A program made the position numbers and the translations under genes. From NCBI GenBank assembly GCA_016764955.1, contig JAESQZ010000163.1:1-32888 (forward strand): a stretch of DNA of 32,888 nucleotides. Reading direction: 5' to 3'. Shown piece after piece: positions 8,341 through 32,467 of this stretch. Origin of the DNA: Deltaproteobacteria bacterium. GTDB taxonomy: Bacteria; Myxococcota; UBA727; JABDBI01. Numbering within the stretch: the first letter of the stretch is position 1; every line of letters begins with the position of its first letter. The notes under the pieces were generated by a model. The model did no database searches. It was not told the origin of the DNA and worked only from the letters and a program-made list of their open reading frames with translations.

Positions 8341-8466
8341 ATGCATGCTGAACAGTATCAAGAAGATTTGCACTATCCAGAGTTTCGCCTAACTATTGAC
8401 TACAGGGAGGATTTACAACTGATTAAAGAGATCTGTAAGACTTTACACCATGAAACCAAAGAATAA
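8341..8466 (+). pseudogene. 3' fragment of a second SpsF/PseF-like cytidylyltransferase gene
   Basis: It translates to MHAEQYQEDLHYPEFRLTIDYREDLQLIKEICKTLHHETKE-stop. The block FRLTIDYREDLQLIKEI parallels HRWTLDTLADYHFLASV near the C-terminus of the intact pseF. No nucleotidyltransferase N-terminal part lies upstream. Its 3' end overlaps the start of the second pseI. Confidence 0.5.
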
Positions 8467-9528
8467 TCTAACAATAGAAAATAAGGCAATAGAGCTTAGT
8501 TCGCCTCCGTTTATTATTGCTGAAATGTCGGCCAATCATAATCAGAGCTTTGACAGGGCCAAAAATATAATTATTGCGGCTAAAGATTGTGGTGCAGATG
8601 CAGTGAAGGTACAGAATTATTCTGCTGATACTTTGACAATGAATTTCTCAACGGAGTCTTTTAGAATAAAGGACAGCAACCCAGATTGGAATGAGAAAAC
8701 ACTTTATGATTTGTATAAAGAGGCTGCAATGCCGTGGGAGTGGTATCCAGAATTAAAAAGAATTGCAGATGATTGTGGTATTATTATTTTTTCAACTGTA
8801 TGCGATGAGACAGCGGTAGAATTTCTTGAAAAAATGGATGCTCCGGCTTATAAAATCGGATCTTTTGAAATCAATCATATACCTTTGATTGTTAAAGCAG
8901 CATCTACGGGTAAGCCCATTATTATGTCCACAGGCATGGCCACTCGTATTGAAATCGAAGAAGCAGTTGCAGCGGCTCAAGATGCTGGATGTAGAGATAT
9001 TGCTTTGCTTAAATGCACTAGTGCTTACCCATCAACACCTGAGGAAGCAAATATTTTAACTATCCCTGATATGAGAGAACATTTCAATTGTGAATTGGAC
9101 TTTCGGATCATACATTAAGCCTTGGAGTGCCATTAACTGCAGTTGCCCATGGAGCCACTATAATTGAAAAACACTTTACGTTAAATCGTAAAGACGGCGG
9201 TTTAGATGCCTCATTCTCATTAGAACCGGACGAATTAAAGTCCCTTGTGAAGGAGGCTAACATAGCATGGAAGTCATTGGGGAAAGTATATTATGGCGCT
9301 ACCGCTATTGAGAAACCCTCTCTTCAGGAACGCCGTTCTCTTTATATTGCAGAAGATATGCAGATTGGTGATAGACTTAACAGGCAAAACCTTCGGTGTA
9401 TTCGTCCTGGTCATGGACTAGCACCTAAATATTATAATAAACTTATTGGAAAGTCTGTGAAACAAGACGTTAAAAGGGGCAGTCCAATAAGCTGGGAAAT
9501 GGTGGAGACGAGCAATAATGAAAATTAA
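8450..9528 (+). pseudogene. pseI: Second pseudaminic acid synthase paralogue, disrupted by a 1-nt deletion
   Basis: ORFs 8450-9118 and 9127-9528 together align end to end with the intact PseI (PFIIAEMSANHN ... LLKCTSAYPS ... IEKHFTL ... IRPGHGLAPKY). Frame 1 reads NCELDFRIIH-stop. Shifting one base at GG 9097-9098 restores NCEL-GLSDHTLSLGVPLTAVAHGATIIEKHF, including the metal-binding SDH motif. Confidence 0.8.
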
Positions 9529-19233: not shown

Positions 19234-20793
19234 ATGGACACAGAGAGCAGAGATCTACTTGCTCACAAGATCAAAACTGTTGATCAGCTCTGTGAGTTAA
19301 TAGGAGCTCGTCCTCGGAAAAAGAAAGTAATCATGTGTCATGGAACATTCGATGTGGTTCATCCAGGACACATTAGACATCTGTTATATGCAAAAACGAA
19401 GGGCGATATACTCATTGCTAGTTTGACGGCTGATGAGCATATCGTCAAAGGAAATGTTCGACCTTATGTGCCAGAAGATTTGAGAGCGATGAATCTAGCC
19501 GCGCTGGAAATGGTCGACTACGTGATTATTGATCGACAAGCGACACCCCTGCAAAACCTGAGTGCTATAAAACCCGACTATTTTGCTAAGGGTTATGAGT
19601 ATTCCGCTGGAGCCCTTCACCCTAAGACTCAAGAGGAGGTGACGGTTTTAGAAAATTACGGTGGTGAAATCATCTTTACACCAGGGGATATTGTCTATTC
19701 GTCTTCGGCATTGATTGAATTAGCGCCACCGGAGATAGCTACTGAAAAATTGATGACTCTCATGCAAGCAGAGAATATTAGCTTTAAAGACCTATATGCT
19801 ACGCTCGAACGATTTAGGGGAATCAAAGTACATGTTGTGGGAGACACGATTGTTGATAGTTATTCCCATTGCAATGTAATTGGTGGCATTACAAAGACGC
19901 CAACAATGAGCGTGTTGTTCCAGGAAAGGACTGATTATGTGGGCGGTGCAGGAATTGTGGCCAAACACCTTCAAACTGCTGGTGCCCAAGTAACCTTTTC
20001 GACTGTATTGGGTGATGATAAGTTGAAAGAGTTTGCTTTGAAAGATTTGGAAGCGGCTGGTGTGCAAGTATGCCCCATTATCGATACAACACGACCCACT
20101 ATTAACAAAAATGCGATTGTGGCAGGGGGATATCGGTTGCTCAAAGTGGACACATTGGACAATCGATCTATTTCTGACAAGCAGATTGAGATTTTGAAAA
20201 AACAAATCGCTGAAACTAAGACAGATACAGTCATATTCAGTGACTTTCGTCATGGTATATTCAATCGTCACACGATTCCAAGCCTTGCTTCGGCCATTCC
20301 AGAAGGTGTATTTAAGGTTGCAGATAGCCAAGTGGCCAGTCGTTGGGGTAATATTCTTGAATTCGAAGAATTTGACCTGATTACGCCAAACGAACGTGAA
20401 ACCCGATTTGCTTTAGGTGATCAGGATTCTGTTATTAGACCTATGGCGCTTGAGTTATTCAAGCGTTCAAAATGTAAAACTCTGATTCTTAAATTGGGAG
20501 AGCGCGGTACAATCACGTACCGTTCTAAGGCATTGGTCGATTATCGAGCATTTTTCGCTATCGATAGTTTCGTTGAGCGTTTGGTAGATGCAGTAGGTGC
20601 CGGTGATGCACTATTGGCCTATTCTACACTGGCCATGATACGAACTGGAAATGAGGTCATGGCCTCTATATTAGGCGCTATGGCTGCAGCAGTTGAATGC
20701 GAGCATGATGGAAATGAACCTGTGATGTTGGAAGCAGTCAGGAAGAAGATTCACCGTGTGGAAACACACGCATTGTATCACTACGATGGATAA
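19234..20793 (+). CDS. hldE: Bifunctional heptose-phosphate kinase/nucleotidyltransferase, HldE-like, with inverted domain order (nucleotidyltransferase N-terminal, PfkB kinase C-terminal)
   Basis: aa ~30-160: VIMCHGTFDVVHPGHIRHLLYAK is the HxGH cytidylyltransferase-like fold. aa ~190-519: VHVVGDTIVDSY...GGAGIVAKHL and DAVGAGDALLA form the PfkB/ribokinase signature. Confidence 0.75.
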   Translation: MDTESRDLLAHKIKTVDQLCELIGARPRKKKVIMCHGTFDVVHPGHIRHLLYAKTKGDILIASLTADEHIVKGNVRPYVPEDLRAMNLAALEMVDYVIIDRQATPLQNLSAIKPDYFAKGYEYSAGALHPKTQEEVTVLENYGGEIIFTPGDIVYSSSALIELAPPEIATEKLMTLMQAENISFKDLYATLERFRGIKVHVVGDTIVDSYSHCNVIGGITKTPTMSVLFQERTDYVGGAGIVAKHLQTAGAQVTFSTVLGDDKLKEFALKDLEAAGVQVCPIIDTTRPTINKNAIVAGGYRLLKVDTLDNRSISDKQIEILKKQIAETKTDTVIFSDFRHGIFNRHTIPSLASAIPEGVFKVADSQVASRWGNILEFEEFDLITPNERETRFALGDQDSVIRPMALELFKRSKCKTLILKLGERGTITYRSKALVDYRAFFAIDSFVERLVDAVGAGDALLAYSTLAMIRTGNEVMASILGAMAAAVECEHDGNEPVMLEAVRKKIHRVETHALYHYDG

Positions 20794-21688
20794 TATTATT
20801 GTTGGACTCGGCGTTCAAGGGATGAAGCGGCTTTGTGTTGCTGGTAAGGAAGTGGTTGCAACCATTGATCCTGTACACCCTAAAGCTGATTATCGGTCAG
20901 TGATGGATGTTCCTTTAAATAACTACGAGGCAGCTTTGGTTTGTACACCAGATGATGCCAAAATAGAGCTGCTGACTTATTTGTTGAGCAATGGCAAGCA
21001 TGTTTTAGTAGAAAAACCTTTGCTGACACGAGACAATAGTGAGCTTATTCGGCTGCAAGAACTTGCAAACTCCAAGCAAGTTGTTTGCTATACAGCGTAT
21101 AATCATCGATTTGAACCGCATTTTATGCGGATGAAGCATTTAATTGAGTCAGAGGAACTGGGTCAGATTTATTGCGCACGATTGTTTTATGGCAACGGGA
21201 CTGCTCGCTTGGTTCGAAACTCGTCGTGGCGTGATCAAGGTGGTGGCGTATTGCCCGATCTGGGTTCACATCTGCTCGATACGGCGTTGTTCTGGTTTGG
21301 AAAACCATCAGCTCGGTTTGATGTTTATTCAGCGAATCGTTTTGAAAATCGTTCTTTTGACCATTTTTCATTTGGCTCAAAAGGGTCACCTTTGCTGCAA
21401 TTTGAAATGACTTTGCTTAGCTGGCGCAATCATTTCTACGCCGATGTCTTCGGGGAATATGGCAGCGCACATATCCAATCACTCTGTAAATGGGGACCGA
21501 GTAGTTTTATTCGGCGTTTTAGAAATCTACCCAGTGGAAGACCTGACGAAGAATCCAATACTTTGGTTCAGCCAGACCCCACTTGGGAGCTTGAATATAA
21601 GCATTTCAAAGAGCTTTGTTTGAATGGGAAAAGCAATATCAAAAATGATATTTGGATTAACACTATGCTCAAGGATTTAATGCAATGA
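20786..21688 (+). CDS. Gfo/Idh/MocA-family NAD(P)-dependent oxidoreductase
   Basis: MDNIIVGLGVQGMKR, PDDAKIELLTYLLSNGKHVLVEKPL and the YNHRF pattern. ATG 20786 overlaps the hldE stop by 8 nt. The ORF track opens earlier, at 20756. Confidence 0.7.
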   Translation: MDNIIVGLGVQGMKRLCVAGKEVVATIDPVHPKADYRSVMDVPLNNYEAALVCTPDDAKIELLTYLLSNGKHVLVEKPLLTRDNSELIRLQELANSKQVVCYTAYNHRFEPHFMRMKHLIESEELGQIYCARLFYGNGTARLVRNSSWRDQGGGVLPDLGSHLLDTALFWFGKPSARFDVYSANRFENRSFDHFSFGSKGSPLLQFEMTLLSWRNHFYADVFGEYGSAHIQSLCKWGPSSFIRRFRNLPSGRPDEESNTLVQPDPTWELEYKHFKELCLNGKSNIKNDIWINTMLKDLMQ

Positions 21689-22916
21689 GAATCGGATTTA
21701 CTGGCATGACCCATCTTGGTCTTAACTCTGCGGTCGCAGCAGCTGAAAAGGGCTTTGAAGTCGTCTGTCATGATTCAGATCCAGTTCGAATATCAAATCT
21801 TGCACAACATGAATTGCCTGTGGTTGAGCCAGGTCTTCTCGAGCTTTTGAAAAAGAACATCGATAGATGTGCATTTGCGACAGATGTGGGTGATTTAAGA
21901 GCTTGCGATGTTGTGTATATCGCTCCCGATGTACCGACTAATGATCTGGGTCAAAGTGATTTGGAGCCTATTACAAGCTTGGTCTGCCAAATGGATGAAG
22001 TGCTTCGGCCAGAAACCATCTTGGTTATTTTGAGCCAAGTTCCTCCAGGTTTTACCAGGCGGTGTTTGGGCTCTAGGAGATCTCTGTTTTACCAAGTCGA
22101 GACGCTTATTTTTGGGCGTGCTATTGAGCGGGCACTTTATCCTGAACGTATTATTGTCGGGTGTTTGAATCCAGGTGATCCACTGCCGGTGATTTTTTCG
22201 AGATTTCTCGAAAGCTTTCGATGTCCCATTTTGCCTATGCGCTACGAGAGCGCAGAACTTGCCAAGATTTCTATCAACATGTGTTTGGTTGCCTCAGTGA
22301 GTGTCGCCAATACATTGGCTGAGCTATGTGAAAATATTGGAGCCAACTGGTCAGAAATAGTGCCTGCACTGAAACTCGATAAACGTATTGGCCCACATGC
22401 TTATCTTGCACCTGGCCTAGGAATTGCAGGTGGTAATCTGGAGCGAGACTTAAAGACGGTGTGTAACTTGGCAGACCAGCATGGCAGTGATGCGGGTGTT
22501 GTTCGTGCTTGGATGGCCAACAGCACTTATAGACGCGACTGGGTCCTGCGTACGCTTCATCGTGAGATTTTAGCTGTTATGAACGATCCGGTGATTACAG
22601 TGCTGGGGCTTGCCTATAAACCAGATACGAATTCTATCAAAACTCAGCTTCTGTTGCATTGCTGAAAGATCTGAAGGCGTATCGCACACGGGTATTTGAT
22701 CCAGTTGTTCAGAATGAGGGGTCCAATGAACTAGACGCCTGTGAAGGGGCTGATGTTTTGATTCTCATGACACCCTGGGAACAATTCGCCAAGCTGGATC
22801 CGATCCAAATACAACGAAAGATGCGGGGTAGATTAGTTATTGATCCCTATGGCGTCCTAAACGCTGAATCCTGCCATACAGCTGATCTTCAATATTTTAC
22901 TTTGGGAGTGACATGA
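21685..22916 (+). pseudogene. UDP-glucose/GDP-mannose dehydrogenase-family gene, interrupted by a 1-nt deletion and lacking the catalytic Cys
   Basis: ORFs 21685-22665 and 22659-22916 join into one family-typical protein if an A is added to the A4 run at 22639-22642. The junction then reads GLAYKPDTNSIK-NSASVALLKDLKAYRTRVFDPVV. The active-site block reads PGLGIAGGNLERD where the family has PG.GFGGSC.PKD, so Asn replaces Cys at 22435-22437. Confidence 0.7.
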
Positions 22917-23731
22917 CAATTCAAAATCGTGTGGTAATTTTAGGCAGCAGAGGCTTTGTGGGTGGGGCACTTTGTAAGCAGCTCGAAGCAGTAGGTACTC
23001 AGGTGGTTGCTCCAGCATCTATGGAGATAAACCTGGCTGAAACAGGTTGCATTGATAAACTGCTTGCATTGCTAAAGCCATCTGATGCAGTTGTGATGCT
23101 CGCAGCGCTCACGCCAGACAAAGGTCGTGATATTGCAACATTGATGAAAAATTTAGCCATGATGCAGAATGTATGTGCTGCACTTGGTCAATCTGCTTGT
23201 GCCCATTTTACCTACTTTAGTTCCGATGCCGTCTATGATTCTGCGTTAAGCCTTGTAGGCGAGGATACGCCAGCTTCTCCACAGGATCTCTATGGTGTCA
23301 TGCATTATACGCGTGAGATTATGGCTAAAAGTCTAAAAATACCTGTTCTTATCCTGAGACCGACACTTATTTATGGTTTGGGTGATACGCATAACTCTTA
23401 TGGCCCCAATCGATTTCGACGAATGGCAGAGAAAACAGGTGAGATTACACTGTTTGGTGAGGGTGAAGACAAACGTGATCACATTCATATAGACGATGTT
23501 ATAGCTTTCACTTTATGCTGTCTGATGTCCAAGAAAACAGGCATACTAAACCTGGCTACTGGAGTCTCCAAAACTTTTTATGAAGTGGCTAAGAGTGTCT
23601 CAAAACAATTTGAGAACCCCATTAAGATTATAACCACTCCGCGTGTGAATCCAGTCACACAGCGTCACTATGATGTGACCCGTCTTATCAAAACATTTCC
23701 AGATTTTCGATTTAAAGGAGAAATTGCCTGA
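22913..23731 (+). CDS. Atypical extended-SDR, RmlD/GDP-fucose-synthase-like reductase or epimerase
   Basis: VVILGSRGFVGGAL and FSSDAVYD. The catalytic region reads LYGVMHYTRE, with His where the YxxxK Lys is expected. ATGA overlap with the upstream gene. Confidence 0.6.
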   Translation: MTIQNRVVILGSRGFVGGALCKQLEAVGTQVVAPASMEINLAETGCIDKLLALLKPSDAVVMLAALTPDKGRDIATLMKNLAMMQNVCAALGQSACAHFTYFSSDAVYDSALSLVGEDTPASPQDLYGVMHYTREIMAKSLKIPVLILRPTLIYGLGDTHNSYGPNRFRRMAEKTGEITLFGEGEDKRDHIHIDDVIAFTLCCLMSKKTGILNLATGVSKTFYEVAKSVSKQFENPIKIITTPRVNPVTQRHYDVTRLIKTFPDFRFKGEIA

Positions 23732-24720
23732 TGTCACGATATGCAATCATTGGTGGAGGAGGCGTATTTGCTATTCATTTTGCAAAATATTTGCTTGAGC
23801 AAAACAGCACGGAATCCGTTCTTTCTATTGGCCGAAATCCACCCAAATCTTCTGCGTTTACGTTGGATATAGGTAAAGAGGATAGTCGTTTCAAATACGA
23901 ACAAGTTCATCTTGTTTTTGAGCAAGATCGCTTATTTGAGTTATTTGATCAGATGCAGCCTAAATATATAGTTAATTTTGCCGCTTTGGCGTATGCCACC
24001 TCGTGGGAGAAGTCCTTTCGCTATTATGAAACAAACGTCGTTGCTGTGGCTAAGATGTGTGAGCAGCTAATGAAAAGAGACTACTTGGAGCGCTTTATTC
24101 AGATAGGCACTTCAGAATTATATGGATCTGTGACTAAACCTGCAGATGAAGATTATCCCATACAGCCAACAAGTCCCTATGCAGTCTCAAAACTTGCGGC
24201 TGATATGCACCTTGAAACTCTGTGGCAGGTGAAAAAATTTCCGATGAATATTATTCGCCCATCGAACGCCTATGCTCCAGGGCAATTGATGTATCGCATA
24301 TTGCCACGGGCTGTGTATGCGGGGCTAACGGGACAGAAATTACCACTTCAAGGTGGTGGCTTGGTGAAAAAATCATACATGCATGCCTACGACCTGGCGC
24401 GAGCCATCGATTTGGTTATGAAGAAGGCGCCATTTGGGAAAATTTATAATGTAGGACCTCAAGAACCTGTTTCGATTCGGCACTTAGTTCGGCTGATTGC
24501 AGAGGGTCTTGGGATGGAGTTAGATCAGTTGGTTGACATAACGCCTGGGCGCGTCGGTGAAGACTCACAGTATTGGCTAGATAGCAGTAGGATTCAGAAC
24601 GAATTGGGCTATCGAGAAGCTATTTCTATCGAAAGAGGCATTCAAGACATGATTGACTGGGGCAAAAGATATCTCCCCTTATTACATAACGAACCGATGG
24701 AGTTTGTTCTTCGAGCTTAG
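23731..24720 (+). CDS. NDP-sugar 4,6-dehydratase, GDP-mannose-dehydratase-like
   Basis: IIGGGGVFAIH, IQIGTSELYG (the T-S-E triad seen in GMD, which has ASTSELYG) and SPYAVSKLAADMH (YxxxK). The family includes GDP-mannoheptose 4,6-dehydratases (DmhA/WcbK). The substrate is inferred from the heptose context. Confidence 0.65.
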   Translation: MSRYAIIGGGGVFAIHFAKYLLEQNSTESVLSIGRNPPKSSAFTLDIGKEDSRFKYEQVHLVFEQDRLFELFDQMQPKYIVNFAALAYATSWEKSFRYYETNVVAVAKMCEQLMKRDYLERFIQIGTSELYGSVTKPADEDYPIQPTSPYAVSKLAADMHLETLWQVKKFPMNIIRPSNAYAPGQLMYRILPRAVYAGLTGQKLPLQGGGLVKKSYMHAYDLARAIDLVMKKAPFGKIYNVGPQEPVSIRHLVRLIAEGLGMELDQLVDITPGRVGEDSQYWLDSSRIQNELGYREAISIERGIQDMIDWGKRYLPLLHNEPMEFVLRA

Positions 24721-24726
24721 CTAAGT

Positions 24727-27219
24727 ATGATTGAAAAAATTAGCTTATCCAGACAAGATCTAGAAGAACTTGAGTGTCTGAAAGTAAATCCAGCAGATAT
24801 TCAAGACGATTACTATGATTACTCAAAAATTGTGGTTAAAAAGCCGTGGGGTTATGAATATCTTATTTTTTCTAATGCCAAAGTCGCCGTCTGGGTTCTT
24901 TATCTTAAACGAGACGCACAAACCTCTGTGCATTGCCATCCCAATAAGAAAACCTCTTTAGTCGTCTTAGAAGGCAAAGTTAATTGTTCGAGCCTTGCGG
25001 GGACACGAGCAAGATCAGCAGGAGAAGGGCTTTTAATTGACAAAGGCGTGTTCCATCAAACAACAGCGGTTTCAAAAACCGGCGCTTTTGTGATGGAAAT
25101 TGAGACGCCCATCAATAAGCGCGATTTGGTTAGGTTAAAAGACAAATATGGACGAGAAGGGAAAGGTTATGAAACCCAAGACCAGTACTGTTTTAATTCG
25201 AAAAATTATAACTATATTTCTTTTCAGAGCAATGTAAAAAAGCATTTTGGACATTGTTCCATGGCATTCAAGAAACTAGTTGATTCAAAAAGTCTCAATG
25301 AAATTTTAGCATTGGACCCTGAAGATGTCGTGTGCCTGCTCGATGGACGGTTGTTAAACGCATCCGGTCATTCTGTTTTAGATATTGGTGACACAGTTGT
25401 TGTCAATGAATTTAGGCAACTGAGACCGGTACAGGTGGATCCAAATTCAGAAATTTTGATTATCAAAAATACAGACCCTATTTCGAAAGTATCAGACATT
25501 GTTTCCAGATTGTTAAATGAAAGAAATGTTAAACCTATTTTTATTGTCCCAGGCGATGCCAATGTTCACCTGCTTGATTCCATCGGAAGATGTGATGGTT
25601 TAAGTTATGTTTGCATGCGAAATGAAAAGAGCGCTTCTTTTGCGGTTGAATCATTTTGTAAATTGCGCTCAACCGTTGGTGCTCTTGTTGTTTCTTCAGG
25701 CTCTTCGGCGATTAGTGCAGTTCCAGGTGTTGCCAATGCCTGGATGGACTCTGTGCCTATGTTGGTGATTTCAGGTCAAGCACGGACAGACCAAAATACA
25801 AAAGGTGGTGTTCGACAATTAAGCGACAAATCTCTCTCTATTACCAACCTAGTCAAGTCTATTACGAAGTATGCGGTTGAGGTGTCGGATCCAGCTCAGA
25901 TTGGCTACCATCTGGATAAGGCTATTTACTTAGCTACTGACGGTAGACCGGGGCCTGTGTGGGTGGATCTTCCTATTGATGTTCAGGGCATGAGTATTCA
26001 TGAAGATGAACTGAGCAAATTTGTTCCTGAAGACAAATCATCTCCTAAGCTAAAAGGACAGATATCGCAGGTCATGGAGATGCTGAAACAGGCATCACGT
26101 CCCGTGATATTAGCTGGGCATGGAATTCGTCAGGCTAAAGCGATAGGAGACTTTTTAGCGCTTATCGAACGACTTAAAATCCCAGTTCTCACTTCTCGAC
26201 GAGGAGCAGATATCATACCCGACGACCATCCTTGGTTTTTTGGTCGACCGGGTGCGTATGGACAACGAAGTGCTAATTTTATTATTCAAAACTGTGATTT
26301 GCTCATCAGTATTGGATCGCGCCTGTCAATTCCGTTGATTGGTCGTAATACTAAAGCCTTTGCCAGAGCAGCTCGTAAAATCGTTGTTGATATTGATGCT
26401 CATGAACTTCAAAAGCCGACTCTCAAAATAGATTTGCCCATTGCTTTGGATGCAGGCGAATTTATTAGAGAGTGCTTGACATTTTTGCCAGATTCGCTGC
26501 CTTCATGTGCTGCTTGGCTTGGGCGCTGCCAAGATTGGCGAGCTAAATTTCCACCTGTCTTATCAAACGACAGTCTATCTTTTGTAAGAATGCTATCAGA
26601 CGAGATGAATGAAAATGATGTCATTGTAGCGGATGGAGGAGCCAGTTTGATTTATGCTCTGCAGGCTTTTTGCTTTAAATCAGGGCAAAGGCTGATCAGT
26701 TCGACGGGACTTGAGCTGCCTGGATTTGCTTTACCAGCAGCGATTGGAGCTTGTATCGCCAGAGACAGCAAATCCATTGTTTGTCTTTGTGAAGACCATG
26801 GATTCCAAAACAATCTGCAAGAATTACAGACAATTATTGATTATCAATTACCTATCAAAATTCTGATTTTGAAAAGCAGAGGGCATTCTATTATCCGCAA
26901 TATACAACGAGATTATTTTGGGAGTCGCTTTGTCGGGACAGATCACGAGATCCGGTTGGGTTCAACGTCTTTGGCACGAATTGCTGAAATATTTGGTTTT
27001 CCAGGTGCAACCACTTTGCAAGAGTTGTTAAAAATCAAAGGACCAGCCGTTTTTGAAGTACAGATCGAAGACGATCAAGATCAAATTCCACGTCCTGGGT
27101 TTATTATTCGGGAAGATCGAAAATGGATGGCCAAGCCACTGGAGGATATGGTTCCATTTTTAGACCGAAAGACATTTCAAGAGAACATGATGATTGATGT
27201 TATTCAGGATGAACTGTGA
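24727..27219 (+). CDS. Fusion of an N-terminal sugar-type cupin (PMI type II-like) to a ThDP-enzyme (acetolactate-synthase-like) body with a degenerate ThDP-Mg motif
   Basis: aa ~35-135: VVKKPWGYEYLIF...SVHCHPNKKTSLVVLEG...GVFHQT is the cupin. From about nt 25491 the sequence aligns to the downstream ThDP enzyme (KYAVEVSDPAQIGYHLDKAIYLATDGRPGPVWVDLP). The PP-domain motif reads CEDHG...ILKSRGH instead of GDG...NNGG. Confidence 0.7.
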   Translation: MIEKISLSRQDLEELECLKVNPADIQDDYYDYSKIVVKKPWGYEYLIFSNAKVAVWVLYLKRDAQTSVHCHPNKKTSLVVLEGKVNCSSLAGTRARSAGEGLLIDKGVFHQTTAVSKTGAFVMEIETPINKRDLVRLKDKYGREGKGYETQDQYCFNSKNYNYISFQSNVKKHFGHCSMAFKKLVDSKSLNEILALDPEDVVCLLDGRLLNASGHSVLDIGDTVVVNEFRQLRPVQVDPNSEILIIKNTDPISKVSDIVSRLLNERNVKPIFIVPGDANVHLLDSIGRCDGLSYVCMRNEKSASFAVESFCKLRSTVGALVVSSGSSAISAVPGVANAWMDSVPMLVISGQARTDQNTKGGVRQLSDKSLSITNLVKSITKYAVEVSDPAQIGYHLDKAIYLATDGRPGPVWVDLPIDVQGMSIHEDELSKFVPEDKSSPKLKGQISQVMEMLKQASRPVILAGHGIRQAKAIGDFLALIERLKIPVLTSRRGADIIPDDHPWFFGRPGAYGQRSANFIIQNCDLLISIGSRLSIPLIGRNTKAFARAARKIVVDIDAHELQKPTLKIDLPIALDAGEFIRECLTFLPDSLPSCAAWLGRCQDWRAKFPPVLSNDSLSFVRMLSDEMNENDVIVADGGASLIYALQAFCFKSGQRLISSTGLELPGFALPAAIGACIARDSKSIVCLCEDHGFQNNLQELQTIIDYQLPIKILILKSRGHSIIRNIQRDYFGSRFVGTDHEIRLGSTSLARIAEIFGFPGATTLQELLKIKGPAVFEVQIEDDQDQIPRPGFIIREDRKWMAKPLEDMVPFLDRKTFQENMMIDVIQDEL

Positions 27220-27232
27220 AGGGATTAGTTTG

Positions 27233-29029
27233 ATGCGCGTTGCTGACTATGTGATTCAGTTTTTTGAAAACCTCGGGGTGGAGCATATCTTCACAGTTTC
27301 AGGAGGCGGATCGATTTTTCTTTGCGATGCTTTAGGGACTGCCAAAAAAATGAAATATGTGGCTTGCCATCATGAGCAAGCGGCATCTATGGCCACAGAA
27401 GCCTATGCGAGAGTTCGCAATGATTTAGGTGTGACTTTGGTGACAGTAGGGCCTGGTGCTACCAATACGGTAACGGGGGTGGCAGGATCTTGGTTGGACC
27501 ACGTTCCGCATGTTACAATTTCAGGACAAATATTTTTAAATCAAACCATTTGCAAAAACCCTGGGTTGCGCACAATGGGTGTGCAAGAGATTGATATTGT
27601 CAGCATTGTTAAGCCCATTACGAAATATGCGGTGATGATAGAAGATGCGACTAAGATTCGTTACCATCTTGAAAAGGCTGTCTATTTAGCAACACATGGC
27701 AGGCCAGGTCCAGTTTGGATTGATATTCCAGGCGATATTCAAAAAGCTGAGATTGATCCTAAACTCCTCCATGGATTTGAACCTGAAGAATCGTCTGTAT
27801 CAATCGAACCCGAATTAAAAGAAAAAGTGAAGTGCTTTATTAAGCTGTTACAGGCAGCAAAACGGCCTTTGTTGCATGTCGGGCAAGGGGTTCGGATTTC
27901 CGGTGCCGAAGGAGAAATGTTTGAACTGATAGAAAAATATAAACTTCCCTTTGTTACAGCTCGAAATGCAAATGATATTACCTCGTCTGACCATGAACTC
28001 TTCGTTGGTCGTCCTGGAACATTTGCGCAGCGAGGTGCTAACTTCGCAGTTCAGACATCTGACTTGTATCTTGCCGTTGGAACACGTTTATCACTTTCTC
28101 AAACGGGATTTAACTCTCACGATTATGCGCGCAATGCCAAGACTGTTATGGTAGATGTTGACTGGGCAGAGTTAAATAAAAAGACTTTGAAGCTCGATTT
28201 GAAGATTCAGGCAGATGCGAAATTATTTTTTCAAGAGTTACTACGCCAATTATCTGAGGAAGACCTGAATACGCACCAATGGGCTTCGTGGATAGAAAAA
28301 TGTCAAACGTGGAAACATCGATACCCGGTTGTTCTCCCAGAATTTCGTGAGCAAGTTGATAGCATTAATTCTTATCATTTTATTGATGTTCTATCAGATG
28401 TTTTGACTCCAGAAGATACGATTGTAACAGATATGGGCTTCGCCTTCCAGAATACACACCAGGCCTTTCGAGTTAAAAAAGGTCAAAGAATGTTCACCAA
28501 TTGTGGTTTAGCCTCTATGGGCTGGGGTTTGCCGGCAGCAGTTGGAGCTTGTTTTGGCAGCGGTAAAAAGAGAACGATTTGTTTGGCTGGCGAAGGGGGA
28601 CTGATGATGACCATCCAAGAGATGGCGACGATTATGCATCATCGTCTTCCAGTAAAGTTGTTTGTTTTCAATAATGGTGGTTATCTGACGATTAAGCAAA
28701 CGCAAGAGTTTGGATTTGGTGGCCGTTTGATGGGGATTAATGCCGAAACTGGACTTTCGTTCCCAGATTTCATGAAAATTGCTGAGGCTTATCAATTCAA
28801 GGCGCTTCGTCTGGATTCGCATGAAAGTCTCAGGCAACGCCTAGAAGAAGTTGTTAATTTCGAGGGCCCGGTTTTTTGTGAAATTATGATGGATCATAAT
28901 CAGTTGCAAGCACCACGAGCGGTCAATCGAAAAAATTCTGATGGCACCATGAAACAAACTCCGCTCGAAGATAGTTATCCATTTTTGGATCAGAGAGAAG
29001 TTCAAGAAAATCTAAACATTGCTAGTTAG
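27233..29029 (+). CDS. Thiamine-diphosphate-dependent enzyme, acetolactate synthase large-subunit/YerE-like
   Basis: MRVADYVIQFFENLGVEHIFTVSGGG, CHHEQAASMATEAYAR (catalytic Glu), GPGATN, RPGPVWIDIP and LAGEGGLMMTIQEMATIMHHRLPVKLFVFNNGGY (ThDP-Mg motif with GEG in place of GDG). The ORF track opens at 27194; ATG 27233 gives the family-typical N-terminus. Confidence 0.8.
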   Translation: MRVADYVIQFFENLGVEHIFTVSGGGSIFLCDALGTAKKMKYVACHHEQAASMATEAYARVRNDLGVTLVTVGPGATNTVTGVAGSWLDHVPHVTISGQIFLNQTICKNPGLRTMGVQEIDIVSIVKPITKYAVMIEDATKIRYHLEKAVYLATHGRPGPVWIDIPGDIQKAEIDPKLLHGFEPEESSVSIEPELKEKVKCFIKLLQAAKRPLLHVGQGVRISGAEGEMFELIEKYKLPFVTARNANDITSSDHELFVGRPGTFAQRGANFAVQTSDLYLAVGTRLSLSQTGFNSHDYARNAKTVMVDVDWAELNKKTLKLDLKIQADAKLFFQELLRQLSEEDLNTHQWASWIEKCQTWKHRYPVVLPEFREQVDSINSYHFIDVLSDVLTPEDTIVTDMGFAFQNTHQAFRVKKGQRMFTNCGLASMGWGLPAAVGACFGSGKKRTICLAGEGGLMMTIQEMATIMHHRLPVKLFVFNNGGYLTIKQTQEFGFGGRLMGINAETGLSFPDFMKIAEAYQFKALRLDSHESLRQRLEEVVNFEGPVFCEIMMDHNQLQAPRAVNRKNSDGTMKQTPLEDSYPFLDQREVQENLNIAS

Positions 29030-29038
29030 GAGAAAAAA

Positions 29039-29560
29039 ATGCAAAAAAAAGCGATTATTATGGCGGGGAAATTGATTCAGGATCACGAGTTTATCTATCC
29101 GTATTATCGACTTCAAGAAGAAGAATTCGAAGTCGATGTTGCCGTCAGAGGGAAAGAGACGGTAACGGGTTTTCTTGGAGCCAAGGTGGTTCCGACGAAA
29201 GATATTCCGGAACTCAAGGTTGAAGATTACCAGGTTTTGGTTTTGCCAGGTGGCGCTAAAGCTATGGAGTATATGAGGCAGGACCAAGATATTTTGAACT
29301 TTATCGCTGATTTTCACGCTTCTGGTAAAGTGATCGCTTCGATTTGCCATGCTGGTCAGTTATTAATCTCGGCCAAGCTGGTGAAAGACAGAAAAATATC
29401 AGCCTATTATAGTATCAAAGACGATGTTAATAATGCCGGTGGAACTTATATCGATGCGCCTTTTGTTACGGATGATCGCATTGTAAGCTGTCCTCACTAC
29501 AAGCATCTAGGCCCATGGATGAAAGAAGTTATTCATCAAGTCCAGAAGACCTGTGGATGA
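29039..29560 (+). CDS. DJ-1/PfpI-family protein (class I glutamine amidotransferase-like fold)
   Basis: A 173-aa protein with VLVLPGG, KVIASICHAGQLL (nucleophile-elbow Cys followed by His, as in PfpI) and DDRIVSCPHY. The RBS TAGGAG lies upstream. Confidence 0.7.
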   Translation: MQKKAIIMAGKLIQDHEFIYPYYRLQEEEFEVDVAVRGKETVTGFLGAKVVPTKDIPELKVEDYQVLVLPGGAKAMEYMRQDQDILNFIADFHASGKVIASICHAGQLLISAKLVKDRKISAYYSIKDDVNNAGGTYIDAPFVTDDRIVSCPHYKHLGPWMKEVIHQVQKTCG

Positions 29561-30201: not shown

Positions 30202-30878
30202 AAGGTTACCCGGAGCCGAAAGAACCTCGATGGGTTCACCAAAACATTAGAACAATTCAAAATCGTATCAACGCCTCCTATCGAGATCGAAAATTCTACG
30301 ACGGAGATCGAAATGATGGATATGGGGGTTTTCAGTACGATGGGCGATGGGAACCGATTGCTCGGAATATTTGTAAAAAATATGCTCTCGATGATCAGTC
30401 TGCTATTTTACAAATTGGATGTGACAAAGGATTTCTACTCCACGAATTGTTACAATTGCATCCAGGCATGGAAGTAGTTGGGACTGAAATCTCTGATTAT
30501 GCAATTGCTTGTGGAATGCCCTTGGTCAAACCAAAGATTCAAAAAACGCCATTCCAAACTTTGCCTTTTCGAGATGGAAAATTTGATTTCGTGATTGCTA
30601 TTGGAGCTGTCTATACGCTGAATTTGTCGGATGCCATCGCTTGTCTCAAAGAGATTCAGCGAGTTTCCAAGGGAAAAAGTTTTATTACGCTGGGTGCTTA
30701 TGATGGCGAAGAAGACTTCCGTTTGTTTAGATATTGGACATTGTTGGGGTGCACTGTTTTACCCAAGTCAGATTGGATCGAAGTGCTCAAACATGTAGGT
30801 TATACTGGTGACTATAAATTTAATACTGCTGGTTCATTGAATCTAAAGGAGGCGTTTGATGTTAAATCGCTACAATGA
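30180..30878 (+). CDS. Class I SAM-dependent methyltransferase
   Basis: ILQIGCDKGFLLHEL (motif I variant), VVGTEIS (acidic residue at the end of beta-2) and FDFVIAIGAVY (motif III/IV region). The target is unknown. Confidence 0.65.
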   Translation: MREFDILKGYPEPKEPRWVHQNIRTIQNRINASYRDRKFYDGDRNDGYGGFQYDGRWEPIARNICKKYALDDQSAILQIGCDKGFLLHELLQLHPGMEVVGTEISDYAIACGMPLVKPKIQKTPFQTLPFRDGKFDFVIAIGAVYTLNLSDAIACLKEIQRVSKGKSFITLGAYDGEEDFRLFRYWTLLGCTVLPKSDWIEVLKHVGYTGDYKFNTAGSLNLKEAFDVKSLQ

Positions 30879-31719
30879 GCTTTGGAATAAAATTGATAAC
30901 GAAGACACAAGGCCCCGTTTTGCGCGTCATATTATCGAGATGGCCTACGATGAATTTGAAGCAAAAGTTTTGGAGCAGAATCCAGGGTTTGTAAAAGAAA
31001 CAGTTGAATCGTTGTACTCAGGCGATGTTTATTTGCTTAAAAATGGTTTTTCAAAACAATTTATGGAGCGTTTAATTGATAAAGTGTTCCATGTTTTTCA
31101 ATCTGGACCATCAAGATTTTATAAAATGCTGGAGGGGTGCCCTAATTTTCATCGAATTCATGATGAGGAGGCTTCAAAAAAATACATTTTTCAATCAGTT
31201 CGACATTCATATTACTGGTTCCCTTGGAATGGCGATTCTATGGGTGTGAATCAGGGAATCATGAAACGCTGGAGAATTTTTAAATTTCTAGGTGGTTTTC
31301 GACTAGATGAGTATGAAAACAATACGCCAAAAGATGGGGTTGTTGATCGTTTTCAAGTGGCCAGATACCTGCCTGGGATAGGTCGTGTTGAAACCCATTC
31401 TGATCCATTTCAAAATCAAAGATTTTTTATTTCTGGTTTTATGAGTAAACGTGGAGTTGACTATGAAAAAGGTGGGTTTTATGTGGTTTCCCCAGGAAAC
31501 AAATTGAAAGACATCGAAGAGTTTGTTGATGTTGGGGATATTAGTATTGGCTACGCAACTATTTTGCACGGTGTTGATTTGGTAGATCCAGGCAGACCAG
31601 TAGACTGGGCTAAGAATGATGGTCGTTGGTGGTTCGGAGTATATAGTAATTCAACAGATGCAGTGCCTAATCGAGCCATAGGTAAGCCTGTACGGATATC
31701 TTTGACGCGTGAAAGCTAA
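30859..31719 (+). CDS. Hypothetical protein, possible Fe(II)/2-oxoglutarate-dependent oxygenase-like fold
   Basis: A strong RBS AAGGAGG lies 6 nt before ATG 30859. RVETHSDP (HxD) is followed about 60 aa later by YATILHGVD...GR, which fits an HxD...H...R facial-triad layout. No stronger family signature was recognised. Confidence 0.35.
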   Translation: MLNRYNELWNKIDNEDTRPRFARHIIEMAYDEFEAKVLEQNPGFVKETVESLYSGDVYLLKNGFSKQFMERLIDKVFHVFQSGPSRFYKMLEGCPNFHRIHDEEASKKYIFQSVRHSYYWFPWNGDSMGVNQGIMKRWRIFKFLGGFRLDEYENNTPKDGVVDRFQVARYLPGIGRVETHSDPFQNQRFFISGFMSKRGVDYEKGGFYVVSPGNKLKDIEEFVDVGDISIGYATILHGVDLVDPGRPVDWAKNDGRWWFGVYSNSTDAVPNRAIGKPVRISLTRES

Positions 31720-32467
31720 ACGAATTTTAATTACAGGCGCATCGAAGGGGCTGGGTGCTGTTGCTGCGAAAGCATTTGCCAGTCAGGGAGCCCATATAGC
31801 TCTGGTTGCACGTTCAGGAGAACATTTGGAGCGAATTTGTCAATCGTGTGAATTTCCTGAAAGACATAGAATTTTTACTACCGATTTGATGCAAATGACA
31901 AAAATCCAATCTGTCGTACAAGAGATAAAAGAATTTCTCGGTGGTATCGATATTGTTCTTCATGCAGCTGGAGGTGGACTCGGATTGCGAGAAGACTTGC
32001 TTGGGCACGAGGATTTTTCGAAACTCTTTGCCTTGAATCTTGGAGCGGCTGCTGAGATCAATCGCTGGGTTGTACCCTCTATGAAAGATCAAAACTTTGG
32101 CAATCTTGTTCACGTAGGATCGATCGCGTCTAGTGAAGGCATTGGGTCTGTTGGTTATAACACAGTGAAGGCAGCTTTAGCCGCTTATGTTCGAAGTCTT
32201 GGCCGAGAATTGGCACGCTTTAATATTGTGGCAACAGGAATCCTACCAGGTGGATTTATCGCTCCTGAGAATGCCATGGCTAGACTTCAAGAAAACAAGC
32301 CAGATGTCTATCAAAAATTTACTGAAGAACGTTTGCCTCGAAAAAAAATGGGTGAAGCCGAAGAGTTGATACCTATTCTGACACTTCTATGCTCTGAAGG
32401 GGCTTCGATGATGGGTGGGTGTCTTGTGCCCATCGATGCTGGAGAAGGAAGAGCTTACTGCGCTTAA
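31709..32467 (+). CDS. Classical short-chain dehydrogenase/reductase (SDR)
   Basis: ILITGASKGLGAVAAKAFASQGA (TGxxxGxG), HAAGG, GSIASS and YNTVKAAL (YxxxK). GTG start at 31709. Confidence 0.8.
   Translation: MKAKRILITGASKGLGAVAAKAFASQGAHIALVARSGEHLERICQSCEFPERHRIFTTDLMQMTKIQSVVQEIKEFLGGIDIVLHAAGGGLGLREDLLGHEDFSKLFALNLGAAAEINRWVVPSMKDQNFGNLVHVGSIASSEGIGSVGYNTVKAALAAYVRSLGRELARFNIVATGILPGGFIAPENAMARLQENKPDVYQKFTEERLPRKKMGEAEELIPILTLLCSEGASMMGGCLVPIDAGEGRAYCA

Follow-up and report, generated by a model that had tools for sequence, protein, structure and literature searches.

Tandem ThDP genes encode two YerE-like enzymes

What does a ThDP enzyme with a degenerate cofactor anchor do when its gene lies directly upstream of an intact paralogue? 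We investigated this question in a bacterial contig (JAESQZ010000163.1, assembly GCA_016764955.1), whose whole 32,888-nucleotide stretch is referred to as the window. Gene A (24727-27219, plus strand) is an uninterrupted 830-codon ORF whose 830-aa product combines a cupin module (residues 1-252) with a YerE/JanthE-like ThDP body (residues 253-830) in which the cofactor anchor is degenerate. Gene B lies within an ORF at 27194-29029 on the same strand. Its likely ATG start at 27233 is preceded by AGGGA and lies 13 nt past the stop of A, so that B (27233-29029) encodes a 598-aa enzyme of the same type with all canonical PYR and PP residues present. A preliminary description had treated the two as tandem paralogues aligning over about 560 aa, and BLASTP bore this out with 37% identity over 595 aa (E=2e-142), an alignment that takes in the KYAVEVSDP…/KYAVMIEDA… stretch.

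Pfam TPP_enzyme_N, TPP_enzyme_M and TPP_enzyme_C scored above threshold in both proteins, and both matched JanthE (8RPH) and PpYerE (5AHK) far above AHAS. B gave 452 bits against JanthE, 281 bits against PpYerE and at most 252 bits against AHAS, and the NCBIfam AHAS models stayed far under their cut-off (316 and 384 bits versus 538). The AF2 model of A (pLDDT 88.3, pTM 0.83) had JanthE as its top PDB match and superposed on it at TM 0.89-0.91. A and B are thus ThDP enzymes of the YerE-like branch. The known YerE-like carboligases (YpYerE, PpYerE, ErwE and JanthE), which were the closest matches in sequence and structure, share the three-domain fold and the NDP-sugar pathway setting, and B has every canonical residue. 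In the published descriptions consulted, however, each of them is a lone ThDP protein, presented without a cupin, a DJ-1 partner or a fusion. The present locus has a pair of paralogues: A is cupin-fused and lacks the V-conformation residue, the Asn ligand and both flanking Gly, and B carries a GEG motif. Neither a cupin nor a DJ-1 partner, a fusion or a heteromer appears in a 2025 review of the family, and our literature search found no paper describing a cupin-fused degenerate ThDP paralogue with an intact partner, in keeping with the earlier view that the architecture is unusual for this family.

The cofactor anchor of A is non-canonical

The ThDP-Mg motif of B reads G-E-G-G-x23-N-N-G-G-Y (28589-28684, plus strand), a variant of GDG with Glu at the Mg-ligand Asp position, and GEG was found in 14 of 17 B-clade proteins. 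Every tabulated canonical PYR and PP residue was conserved in 17/17 members of this clade, except N480 and G483 (16/17); the eight tabulated PYR positions (G25, H47, E48, Q49, T71, P74, Q118 and E119) were all 17/17. These results support the description of the downstream copy as intact.

We then compared the three domains of A, all on the plus strand, by Pfam and alignment. The PYR domain (TPP_enzyme_N, residues 254-365; 25486-25821) retains the cofactor-activating Glu, as had been reported: E300 in NEKSA (codon 25624-25626) corresponds to E48 in HEQAA of B. Six PYR active-site positions (G25, H47, Q49, P74, Q118 and E119) are altered, with D277, N299, K301, S326 and K368 of A replacing the G, H, Q, P and Q of intact enzymes. 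Across all intact enzymes, each of the six missing residues, among them the Gln that belongs to the 'FQE' motif of AHAS, is conserved to at least 94%. The middle domain (TPP_enzyme_M, residues 446-582; 26062-26472) is almost wholly conserved; in JanthE, which binds FAD, it is the FAD-binding domain (PMC12188165).

In the PP domain (TPP_enzyme_C, residues 636-769; 26632-27033), the cofactor-binding elements are changed, with VADGG, GLELPG and CEDHG…KSRGH in place of VTDMG, GLASMG and GEGG…NNGGY. T399 and M401 of the first loop are lost, and the V-conformation Met is replaced by P665 (codon 26719-26721), which removes the hydrophobic residue for the V shape of ThDP. The motif coordinates first reported were reproduced, with EDHG at 26791 and KSRGH ending at 26886 in A, and GEGG from 28589 followed by NNGGY in B. 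Alignment of the A motif (E689-D690-H691-G…K716-S717-R-G-H720, 26791-26886) with B, JanthE and 69 intact relatives confirmed that both flanking Gly (to E and H/R) and both Asn, of which the second is the Mg ligand (to K and S), are lost. The same column-by-column comparison placed D690 at the canonical Mg-ligand Asp and S717 at the Mg-ligand Asn, indicating that the Asp ligand is kept. The preliminary description had called this motif ruined, which is right about a non-canonical anchor and goes too far for a site that keeps its Asp and whose new residues are conserved.

The altered residues of A are under purifying selection

Full-length homologues of A numbered 120, with identities of 47-68%. 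We compared an A clade of 93 sequences with the 69 intact relatives, using columns at least 93% invariant in the latter. The A clade kept 27/30 such columns in the middle domain and 31/44 in the PYR domain, but only 18/41 in the PP domain, where the lost columns correspond precisely to the cofactor elements (G453E, G455R, N480K, N481S, Y484H/N, M429P, T399A/V and M401G). Conservation extends to the replacement residues (E 88/93, R 67/93, S 77/93, P 74/93, K368 80/93), giving a family consensus of C-E-D-R-G-F…K-S-K-G-H. The Mg-ligand Asp is present in 78/93 and the PYR Glu in 91/93. Among the degenerate fusions, a few divergent members no longer have this Glu (Ser in L055, Asp in L017 and L073). 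Compared between the same genomes, the ThDP body of A diverged slightly faster than B (identity 69 versus 74% and 50 versus 63%). The conserved replacements and the modest excess in divergence indicate that A is under purifying selection rather than in decay.

Frameshifted genes elsewhere in the window (NDP-sugar dehydrogenase, NeuB) and four short deletions in A relative to its closest relatives could be read as signs of a decaying pseudogene, or of an assembly or annotation artefact. Such a reading is extremely improbable. The reading frame is unbroken, a second, independent metagenome contig encodes an identical protein, AF2 modelled A with confidence, and the same altered motif is shared by more than 90 well-conserved homologues from many phyla, all from MAGs or metagenomes. 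Pseudogene decay was therefore rejected, as conservation already refutes it.

In pyruvate:ferredoxin oxidoreductase, Mg is liganded by Asp, Thr and a backbone O. With this precedent, the kept Asp and the Ser/Thr at the Asn ligand, a Mg-diphosphate site may survive in A. The C-terminal residues P788, R789, E806, D807 and P810 are also conserved, and in the alignment R789 takes the place of K567, a residue lining the JanthE active-site cleft, suggesting that the old pocket still matters. It might have been converted to another anionic or diphosphate ligand, such as the NDP part of a nucleotide sugar held for the cupin and B. Such a conversion would fit the retention of the possible Mg ligands D690 and S717 alongside the loss of contacts to thiazolium and pyrimidine, the conserved basic residues gained in or around the pocket (R691 of the consensus, K716, K301 and K368), and the conservation of R789 and its neighbouring C-terminal invariants. 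We regard it as doubtful, since the argument is sequence-based and the new E, R and K residues could equally form salt bridges that fill an empty pocket.

Alternatively, A could still be active through an unusual anchor, in which Asp690, Ser717 and a backbone O bind Mg and Arg/Lys binds the diphosphate, with A and B serving as separate carboligases for different donors or acceptors. D690 is retained, conservation is strong in the new motif, in the FAD domain, among the C-terminal residues and at E300, and the first Gly of GDG already varies in JanthE (CDG; PMC12188165). Against this, the A clade has Pro, Thr, His or Arg at the universal hydrophobic V-conformation position. It has also replaced the T-D-M-G loop, the Asn ligand and both flanking Gly, and six PYR active-site residues are changed. 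We consider it quite likely that the PP site of A does not bind ThDP in the canonical way.

Degenerate fusions are accompanied by an intact ThDP gene

Among 80 related loci, we found three layouts. In the first, separate genes encode the cupin and an intact ThDP enzyme; in the second, the cupin is fused to the intact enzyme and no further copy is present; in the third, the fusion involves a degenerate copy and is accompanied by an intact ThDP gene. All 21 degenerate fusions with enough flank had an intact paralogue in the locus, directly downstream (within 67 nt or overlapping) in 17 of them. In L017, L018 and L040 the partner was non-adjacent and, where placeable, fell outside the B clade. 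Intact systems, fused or unfused, had a second ThDP gene in only about 4/55 loci (Fisher p ~2e-15). Degenerate fusions thus always come with a second ThDP gene and intact fusions never need one, which further argues against an independently active A and leaves that reading improbable.

The topologies of the A and B subtrees largely matched, indicating that the pair has long been inherited together. In the NJ tree the A clade fell outside all intact enzymes, possibly by long-branch attraction, leaving the order of duplication and fusion uncertain. The co-occurrence pattern makes it quite likely that A functionally needs B, and it seems fairly probable that the two form one complex.

The N-terminal module of A is a cupin within an NDP-sugar locus

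The preliminary description had noted about 260 extra N-terminal residues with KPWGYEYL, HCH and FHQ; we found 252 aa carrying these motifs (24727-25482, plus strand). AF2 (pLDDT 94.1) and Foldseek resolved them into a cupin barrel (about residues 36-138) and a second beta-rich domain (about residues 170-250). Modelled in this way, the fold is clearly a cupin, and Foldseek matched cupins and bicupins. Other genomes encode the module on its own, as a protein of about 250 aa, and such homologues cover 98% of it. H69 and H71 of HCH and H110 of FHQ (24931-25056, plus strand) are putative metal ligands, invariant in 72 fusions and in 74 stand-alone or fused modules, and Lys75 at the motif-1 Glu position points to a 3-His type site.

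A type II PMI-like cupin had been proposed. The cupin fold stood, whereas the PMI assignment proved weak: similarity to the type II phosphomannose isomerase cupin (PF01050) was confined to a weak profile match, with MannoseP_isomer scoring 17.7 bits (E=0.004; cut-off 23.6), and PMI structures were absent from the top 50 Foldseek matches. Cupin_2 was likewise below threshold (17.8 bits, cut-off 27.2), and a precomputed PF01050 hit is on record for some of the homologues. Foldseek ranked metal cupins highest (E 2e-9 to 6e-7, at only 8-21% identity), which share the barrel and HxH…H ligands: bacterial cysteine dioxygenase (4QM9/3EQE), oxalate decarboxylase, quercetinase, KdgF and the 'sugar phosphate isomerase' SPO2919. 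Judged on the model, the module resembles 3-His metal cupins more than PMI, RmlC or FdtA specifically. It differs from them in its second beta domain and in its coupling, always to a YerE-like enzyme and near-constantly to DJ-1. Oxygenase chemistry is doubtful, as many hosts are likely anaerobes, and a role in binding or isomerising a nucleotide sugar is a guess.

A DJ-1/PfpI-family gene (29039-29560, plus strand; Pfam DJ-1_PfpI E=1.6e-40) is the third member of the module. It was found on the same strand in 65/80 related loci, mostly directly beside the cupin/ThDP genes, and its nearest solved relatives are A. thaliana DJ-1D and PH1704. Upstream lie an RmlD/epimerase-like SDR (22913-23731) and an NDP-sugar 4,6-dehydratase-like SDR (23731-24720), both on the plus strand and assigned by Pfam and NCBIfam. 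Their homologues occur in many related loci, and they are plausible makers of the keto-sugar acceptor. The window also encodes other SDRs, an HldE-like kinase/nucleotidyltransferase, and SIS, HAD and methyltransferase proteins; its NDP-sugar dehydrogenase and NeuB genes are frameshifted. The genomic context is an NDP-sugar pathway, and YerE-type enzymes add acyl branches to NDP-keto-sugars (PMC9306805). By the YerE/YerF logic of the same work (PMC9306805), a short-chain dehydrogenase (31709-32467, plus strand; Pfam adh_short), with homologues in 25/80 related loci, is a candidate YerF-like reductase of the new branch.

Quaternary arrangement and proposed function

Active sites of ThDP enzymes with this fold form across the dimer interface. 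A possible but less favoured arrangement, put forward in the preliminary description, is a tight A:B heterodimer with one hybrid site, in which the PP domain of B would anchor ThDP and Glu300 of A would activate it, the reciprocal site being dead. This would explain why E300 persists in 91/93 A-clade members while its neighbours change, which an A2B2 complex leaves unexplained, and it suits the adjacent, tightly coupled and co-inherited genes. However, the PYR half of B would then face a cofactor-free pocket and be free to drift, yet its eight positions are 17/17; the sole active site would be atypical, using a PYR half without six conserved residues; and the Glu is lost in the L055, L017 and L073 fusions. 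A fully canonical B clade and an A altered in both halves are consistent with a B:B site that is canonical and an A:A site that has been remodelled. The conserved PYR of B and changed PYR of A are explained at least equally well by homodimers of each protein (B2 and A2), which may be joined as A2B2. For a complex of A and B, we lean slightly towards A2B2 over the shared-site dimer.

Related arrangements differ in several respects. AHAS belongs to the same superfamily, with an FAD-type middle domain, dimer-interface active sites and a second, non-catalytic holoenzyme subunit, but that regulatory subunit is an unrelated ACT-domain protein rather than a degenerate paralogue. TKTL1 is a transketolase-like paralogue whose cofactor-binding elements are damaged; it is proposed to work by associating with intact transketolase, and so likewise pairs a damaged copy with an intact enzyme. 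It is, however, eukaryotic, belongs to another ThDP superfamily branch, lacks a fused accessory domain and does not belong to an operon-encoded pair that persists across prokaryotic phyla. In split ThDP enzymes (E1 alpha/beta and the sulfopyruvate decarboxylase ComD/ComE), two different polypeptides make up the site, each with PYR only or PP only, whereas A and B are both full length and one is degenerate.

Taken as a whole, our preferred explanation (probability about 0.55) is a non-canonical A that works only with B, preferably as A2B2. The ancestral unit would have been a set of three genes, coding for a DJ-1/PfpI protein, a cupin of two domains and a single intact YerE-like enzyme. A second ThDP gene would have joined the cupin-fused enzyme in one ancient lineage; both former active-site halves of the fused copy would then have been remodelled, while the free copy kept all catalytic residues. 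A would thus be a conserved non-canonical paralogue of a YerE-like sugar-branching carboligase, carrying a metal-cupin module, whose PP domain most likely no longer binds ThDP-Mg, or not normally, and which depends on the intact B encoded immediately downstream. B would homodimerise with two canonical ThDP sites, and A, probably also dimeric, would dock on it as a dimer of dimers. Such a complex would hold the cupin beside the carboligase, and a keto-sugar or branched product may pass between them.

Proteins A and B are related to YerE and JanthE

Protein A (24727-27219, 830 aa), which carries an N-terminal cupin module, and protein B (27233-29029 from its likely start, 598 aa) shared 37% identity over 595 aa (E = 2e-142), and the coordinates and peptides quoted for the pair in the preliminary description were correct. 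In both proteins, the Pfam domains TPP_enzyme_N, TPP_enzyme_M and TPP_enzyme_C scored above threshold, giving the POX/AHAS-type order of PYR, middle and PP domains. The best solved relatives of both were JanthE (8RPH-8RPJ) and PpYerE (5AHK), well above AHAS, with bit scores of 452, 281 and at most 252 for B, and 346, 222 and at most 192 for A. A 2025 review names a PpYerE structure, which we assume to be 5AHK, deposited under the title Pseudomonas protegens 'AHAS Pf5'. Assignment of A and B as generic AHAS was rejected, as both fell far below the NCBIfam AHAS equivalog cut-offs and matched JanthE and PpYerE best. YerE-like enzymes, whose products include chiral tertiary alcohols and branched sugars, are pursued as biocatalysts. 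YerE-type enzymes transfer an acyl branch from a 2-oxo acid onto an NDP-keto-sugar (PMC9306805), and JanthE is a ThDP-, Mg- and FAD-binding enzyme in which the motif takes the unusual form CDG (PMC12188165). The AF2 model of A (pLDDT 88.3, pTM 0.83) superposed on JanthE with a TM score of 0.89-0.91 and an rmsd of 2.3-2.6 Å; AHAS also superposed.

The ThDP-Mg motif is altered in A

We read the motif columns from an alignment of A with B, JanthE (PDB 8RPH) and 69 intact relatives. The results showed that the cofactor-activating Glu of the PYR domain was present as E300 in A, as the preliminary description had stated, and as E48 in B; it was kept in 91 of the 93 degenerate fusions related to A (A clade) and in all 17 of their intact partners related to B (B clade). 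In some divergent degenerate fusions (loci L017, L055 and L073), this Glu is replaced by Asp or Ser. The canonical ThDP-Mg motif is GDG-x24-27-NN, with its Asp and second Asn as Mg ligands. That of B read G-E-G-x24-N-N, with Glu in the place of Asp, and that of A read E-D-H-x24-K-S. In A, the first Gly was replaced by Glu, the second Gly by His (Arg in most of its family), the first Asn by Lys and the Mg-ligand Asn by Ser, leaving the Mg-ligand Asp, D690, as the sole canonical residue. The motif of A had been described as ruined and B as an intact copy, with an alignment against ThDP enzymes proposed as a check. Aligned with JanthE and the 69 relatives, A had indeed lost both flanking Gly residues and both Asn residues of GDG/NN, but its Asp was retained; B had the canonical PYR and PP residues, but in a GEG rather than a GDG variant.

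The changes in A extended beyond this motif. The large hydrophobic residue that keeps ThDP in the V conformation, M429 in B, was P665 in A (G-L-A-S-M-G to G-L-E-L-P-G); this column held Met in 68/69 intact enzymes and Pro in 74/93 A-clade sequences, followed by S, H, T, C, Q or R. The first PP-domain loop, T-D-M-G, read A-D-G-G in A, and Tyr484 (B numbering) was also lost. From the PYR domain, A had lost G25, H47, Q49, P74, Q118 and E119 (B numbering); Q118 of B, within V-Q-E, appears to correspond to the Gln in the 'FQE' motif of AHAS. Because the V-conformation residue, both Gly residues, the Asn ligand and the first PP loop are lost, A, judged from its sequence, probably does not bind ThDP-Mg in the normal way.

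The altered body of A is conserved

More than 120 full-length homologues of A (845-907 aa) were found at 47-68% identity, with the motif consensus C-E-D-R-G-F…K-S-K-G-H. In a 72-sequence alignment of this family, E300 was invariant and E689, D690 and G692 were at least 90% conserved. Compared between the same pairs of genomes, identity in the ThDP body of A was only a little below that in B (69 vs 74%, 56 vs 72% and 50 vs 63%). Homologue conservation, these identities, the confident AF2 model and its superposition on JanthE indicate that A is a folded protein under purifying selection, and this conservation ruled out a pseudogene or artefact. The closest relatives of A (863 aa; compared with homologue P0003) are 33 aa longer than the A of the window, which has four short deletions: 5 aa near residue 168, 6 aa near 441, 14 aa near 609 (middle-PP linker) and 9 aa near 761 (PP domain).

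We then took the columns with at least 93% invariance across the 69 intact enzymes and checked whether the A clade retained them. Retention was 31/44 in the PYR domain, 27/30 in the middle (FAD) domain and 18/41 in the PP domain. The replacement residues were themselves conserved: G453E in 88/93, Q118K in 80/93, N481S in 77/93, M429P in 74/93 and G455R in 67/93. At the C-terminus, P788, R789, E806, D807 and P810 were kept, R789 aligning with the cleft-lining K567 of JanthE.

All tabulated canonical PYR and PP residues were present in 17/17 B-clade proteins (16/17 for N480 and G483), the sole peculiarity of this clade being GEG. GEG (28589-28597 in the window; surveyed in L001-L020) occurred in 14/17 B-clade proteins, against 0/34 intact single fusions and 3/18 unfused enzymes; the Asp-to-Glu change therefore tracks the presence of a degenerate partner.

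The N-terminal module of A is a probable metal cupin

The fold search with full-length A was dominated by ThDP enzymes, and the N-terminal module (residues 1-252) was modelled apart, using stand-alone homologues. The AF2 model (pLDDT 94.1) comprised a cupin barrel and a second beta-rich domain. This small beta-barrel fold gave 713 PDB matches at E ≤ 0.001, and all of the best 50 listed were cupins or bicupins, confirming the cupin fold proposed earlier. The best match was a bacterial cysteine dioxygenase (E = 2e-9); others near the top included oxalate decarboxylase and quercetinase bicupins, ergothioneine dioxygenase, KdgF and a 'sugar phosphate isomerase' cupin. The proposed likeness to type II phosphomannose isomerase failed to reach threshold: PF01050 scored 17.7 bits on the A N-terminus (gathering cut-off 23.6; E = 0.004). 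The Cupin_2 match was likewise below threshold, and a PDB sequence search with this region gave one weak cupin match only.

H69, H71 and H110 of the cupin metal motifs were invariant and may form a 3-His-type site; the motif-1 Glu position is Lys75. Given the invariant His residues, the metal-cupin fold matches and the sub-threshold PMI and Cupin_2 scores, we read the module as a probable metal-binding cupin. A role as a sugar isomerase or epimerase acting beside a keto group is reasonable, as are other chemistries. An obligate oxygenase role is disfavoured because many hosts are probably anaerobes.

The whole module is a separate protein in many genomes, and its family comprised 518 clusters at E ≤ 1e-30 among 1.84 billion representatives. 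P0284 (666 aa) and P0298 (576 aa) are longer proteins that carry it at their C-terminal end, so the module also takes part in other fusions.

Degenerate fusions always accompany an intact ThDP enzyme

A genome scan with one genome per species gave 198 loci with relatives, of which the best 80 were kept. These 80 came from Chloroflexota, Binatia, Myxococcota, Acidobacteriota, Elusimicrobiota, Nitrospirota, Verrucomicrobiota, Planctomycetota, Omnitrophota, CPR groups and DPANN archaea. Three layouts were observed. In the first, a stand-alone cupin module of about 250 aa is followed directly by an intact ThDP gene of about 600 aa. In the second, the cupin is fused to an intact ThDP body (GDG…NN, HHEQ and G-x-S-M-G canonical) and there is no second ThDP gene. 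In the third, the cupin is fused to a degenerate body and an intact ThDP gene is also present; in 17 loci of this layout, the intact gene lay directly downstream, with a gap of at most 67 nt or a 4-nt overlap. In L017, L018 and L040, which carry divergent degenerate fusions, the intact partner was non-adjacent, a few kb off, and the partners that could be placed in the tree (L017 and L040) fell outside the B clade.

Among loci with enough flank, 21/21 degenerate fusions had an intact ThDP partner in the locus, and about 4/55 intact systems had any second ThDP gene (Fisher p ~2e-15). A shows two features expected of a pseudoenzyme subunit in a paralogous hetero-oligomer, a constant intact partner and purifying selection. 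Since the degenerate fusions are always paired with an intact paralogue, we consider it likely (roughly 80%) that A works with a ThDP enzyme rather than replacing one.

In a neighbour-joining tree, the degenerate fusions formed one clade, and the branching within it largely mirrored that of their partners, indicating that the pair is old and co-inherited. The A clade fell outside all intact enzymes, which may reflect long-branch attraction. A Woesearchaeota MAG locus (L023:471-4938) carries a cupin fusion with intact GDG…NN and, after it, another ThDP gene. The pair shares 50% identity overall but is identical across a stretch of about 50 aa at the motif, pointing to gene conversion or an assembly chimera. 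In the fused copy, the TDMG loop, the Met (to Val) and GPG (to GSA) are already altered, and this locus may represent an independent, earlier stage on the same path as A and B.

A and B lie in a glycan-biosynthesis cluster with a DJ-1/PfpI gene

The window is a glycan-biosynthesis cluster of about 33 kb (GC ~0.43) with every gene on the + strand. Upstream of A and B, its genes include those for a PseB-like dehydratase, a GNAT, two NeuB proteins, an aminotransferase, a CMP-type cytidylyltransferase and a HisH/HisF-like pair. SIS, HAD, transaldolase, several SDR epimerases/dehydratases, an HldE-like nucleotidyltransferase/kinase, a GFO/IDH/MocA oxidoreductase and an NDP-sugar dehydrogenase are also encoded there. 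Genes for DJ-1/PfpI, HAD, methyltransferase, a 287-aa protein with no family match and an SDR lie after A and B. The surroundings of A and B, here and in related loci, are those of an NDP-deoxy/keto-sugar pathway (4,6-dehydratase-like SDR, other SDRs, nucleotidyltransferase/kinase, aminotransferase, methyltransferase). An identical copy of protein A was found on an ENA metagenome contig (TULL18-1, SAMN07571245), and the closest other relatives (64-65% identity) came from Chloroflexota, Binatia and SAR202 MAGs. The source organism is uncultured, and the 80 related loci all come from MAGs or single-cell genomes.

A DJ-1/PfpI gene shared the strand of the cupin/ThDP genes in 65/80 loci, mostly directly adjacent (29039-29560 in the window); it lay downstream in the third layout and mostly upstream in the second. 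Its product resembles A. thaliana DJ-1D and PH1704, which are glyoxalase III/deglycase-type members. Other frequent neighbours in related loci were SDRs, a methyltransferase, an HldE-like enzyme, SIS, aminotransferases, radical-SAM and B12-radical-SAM proteins, and glycosyltransferases; the FabG-like SDR among them could fill the role of YerF. From this neighbour survey, the conserved core therefore consists of DJ-1, the cupin and a YerE-like enzyme, and the A/B pair is a derived form of it.

Radical-SAM and B12-binding radical-SAM genes occurred in 32-35 of the 80 loci (two largest clusters), in other phyla (e.g., L050:11550-12638, L060:14197-16029 and L011:12025-13464), and none was present in the window. 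The HldE-like bifunctional enzyme (19234-20793), found in 25/80 related loci, has its cytidylyltransferase-like domain first and its PfkB kinase second, the reverse of E. coli HldE, in which the kinase comes first. The NDP-sugar dehydrogenase gene (21685-22916) is broken into ORFs of 326 and 85 aa at about 22638, and is an unbroken 410-aa gene in the otherwise identical metagenome contig L081. An A-run in the window is shorter by one A than its counterpart there (ATCAAAAC vs ATCAAAAAC in L081), through either a homopolymer sequencing error or a true frameshift. The second NeuB-like gene (8450-9528) is likewise broken, with one ORF at 8450-9118 (NeuB positions 2-174) and another, in a different frame, at 9127-9528 (NeuB 187-239 plus SAF), probably through a further frameshift; an unbroken NeuB lies at 2425-3486. 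The 287-aa protein (30856-31719) had no match in Pfam, NCBIfam or PDB sequence searches. Its homologues occurred in 8/18 loci with an A/B pair vs 0/62 other related loci, and it has an HSD…H pattern that, by eye only, recalls Fe(II)/2-oxoglutarate oxygenases.

How A and B may work together

Both halves of the active site are altered in A and both are canonical in B, as tight A:A and B:B dimers would give. Dimer-of-dimers assembly is common in the ThDP-enzyme fold, and two such homodimers could be joined in this way. We slightly prefer this arrangement, an A2B2 complex in which A would serve as a cupin-bearing scaffold, and on sequence evidence rank it above the A:B heterodimer sharing one ThDP site that the preliminary description had proposed. 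The near-constant retention of E300 in A speaks for a shared site, but the PYR half of B would then face an empty pocket, yet it is perfectly conserved, and the sole hybrid site would have a PYR half without six residues kept by every intact enzyme. We therefore regard the shared site as rather unlikely.

Another possibility is that the pocket of A now binds a different anionic or diphosphate ligand, such as an NDP-sugar. Such a conversion is suggested by the retention of D690 and S717, which may be Mg ligands, by the gain of R691, K716, K301 and K368, and by the conserved C-terminal residues, but these residues could instead just form salt bridges filling the pocket. A broader reading, which we offer as a long shot, joins these elements: a widespread three-protein machine of DJ-1/PfpI, two-domain 3-His cupin and YerE-like enzyme would make a branched sugar in many uncultured bacteria and archaea, and, after duplication of the ThDP body in one old lineage, the ThDP pocket of the cupin-bearing copy would have become a Mg-diphosphate/anion site holding the nucleotide sugar. 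If true, a ThDP cofactor site would have turned into a substrate-binding site within a paralogous hetero-oligomer.

Significance of the A/B architecture

The 2025 review of YerE-like and related enzymes mentioned no cupin, DJ-1, fusion or heterodimer. In the open-access full-text literature, we found neither this architecture, nor a cupin or DJ-1 linked to YerE-like enzymes, nor an inactive ThDP paralogue subunit in bacteria. The sequence comparisons provide good support for a degenerate, cupin-fused paralogue within a YerE-like system as a conserved, unexplained architecture. Across some 200 related genomes and 500 or so protein clusters, one YerE-like branch consistently occurs with the probable metal cupin and, in most loci examined, with DJ-1/PfpI, and duplication of its enzyme body has given rise to one presumably catalytic copy and one non-canonical copy that is itself conserved. 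If A and B do form a complex, they would offer a clear example, in prokaryotes, of a ThDP pseudoenzyme subunit and would allow a direct test of half-site evolution in ThDP dimers after duplication. A further implication is a sugar modification, so far undescribed, at the surfaces of CPR bacteria, DPANN archaea, Planctomycetota, Omnitrophota, Chloroflexota and others.
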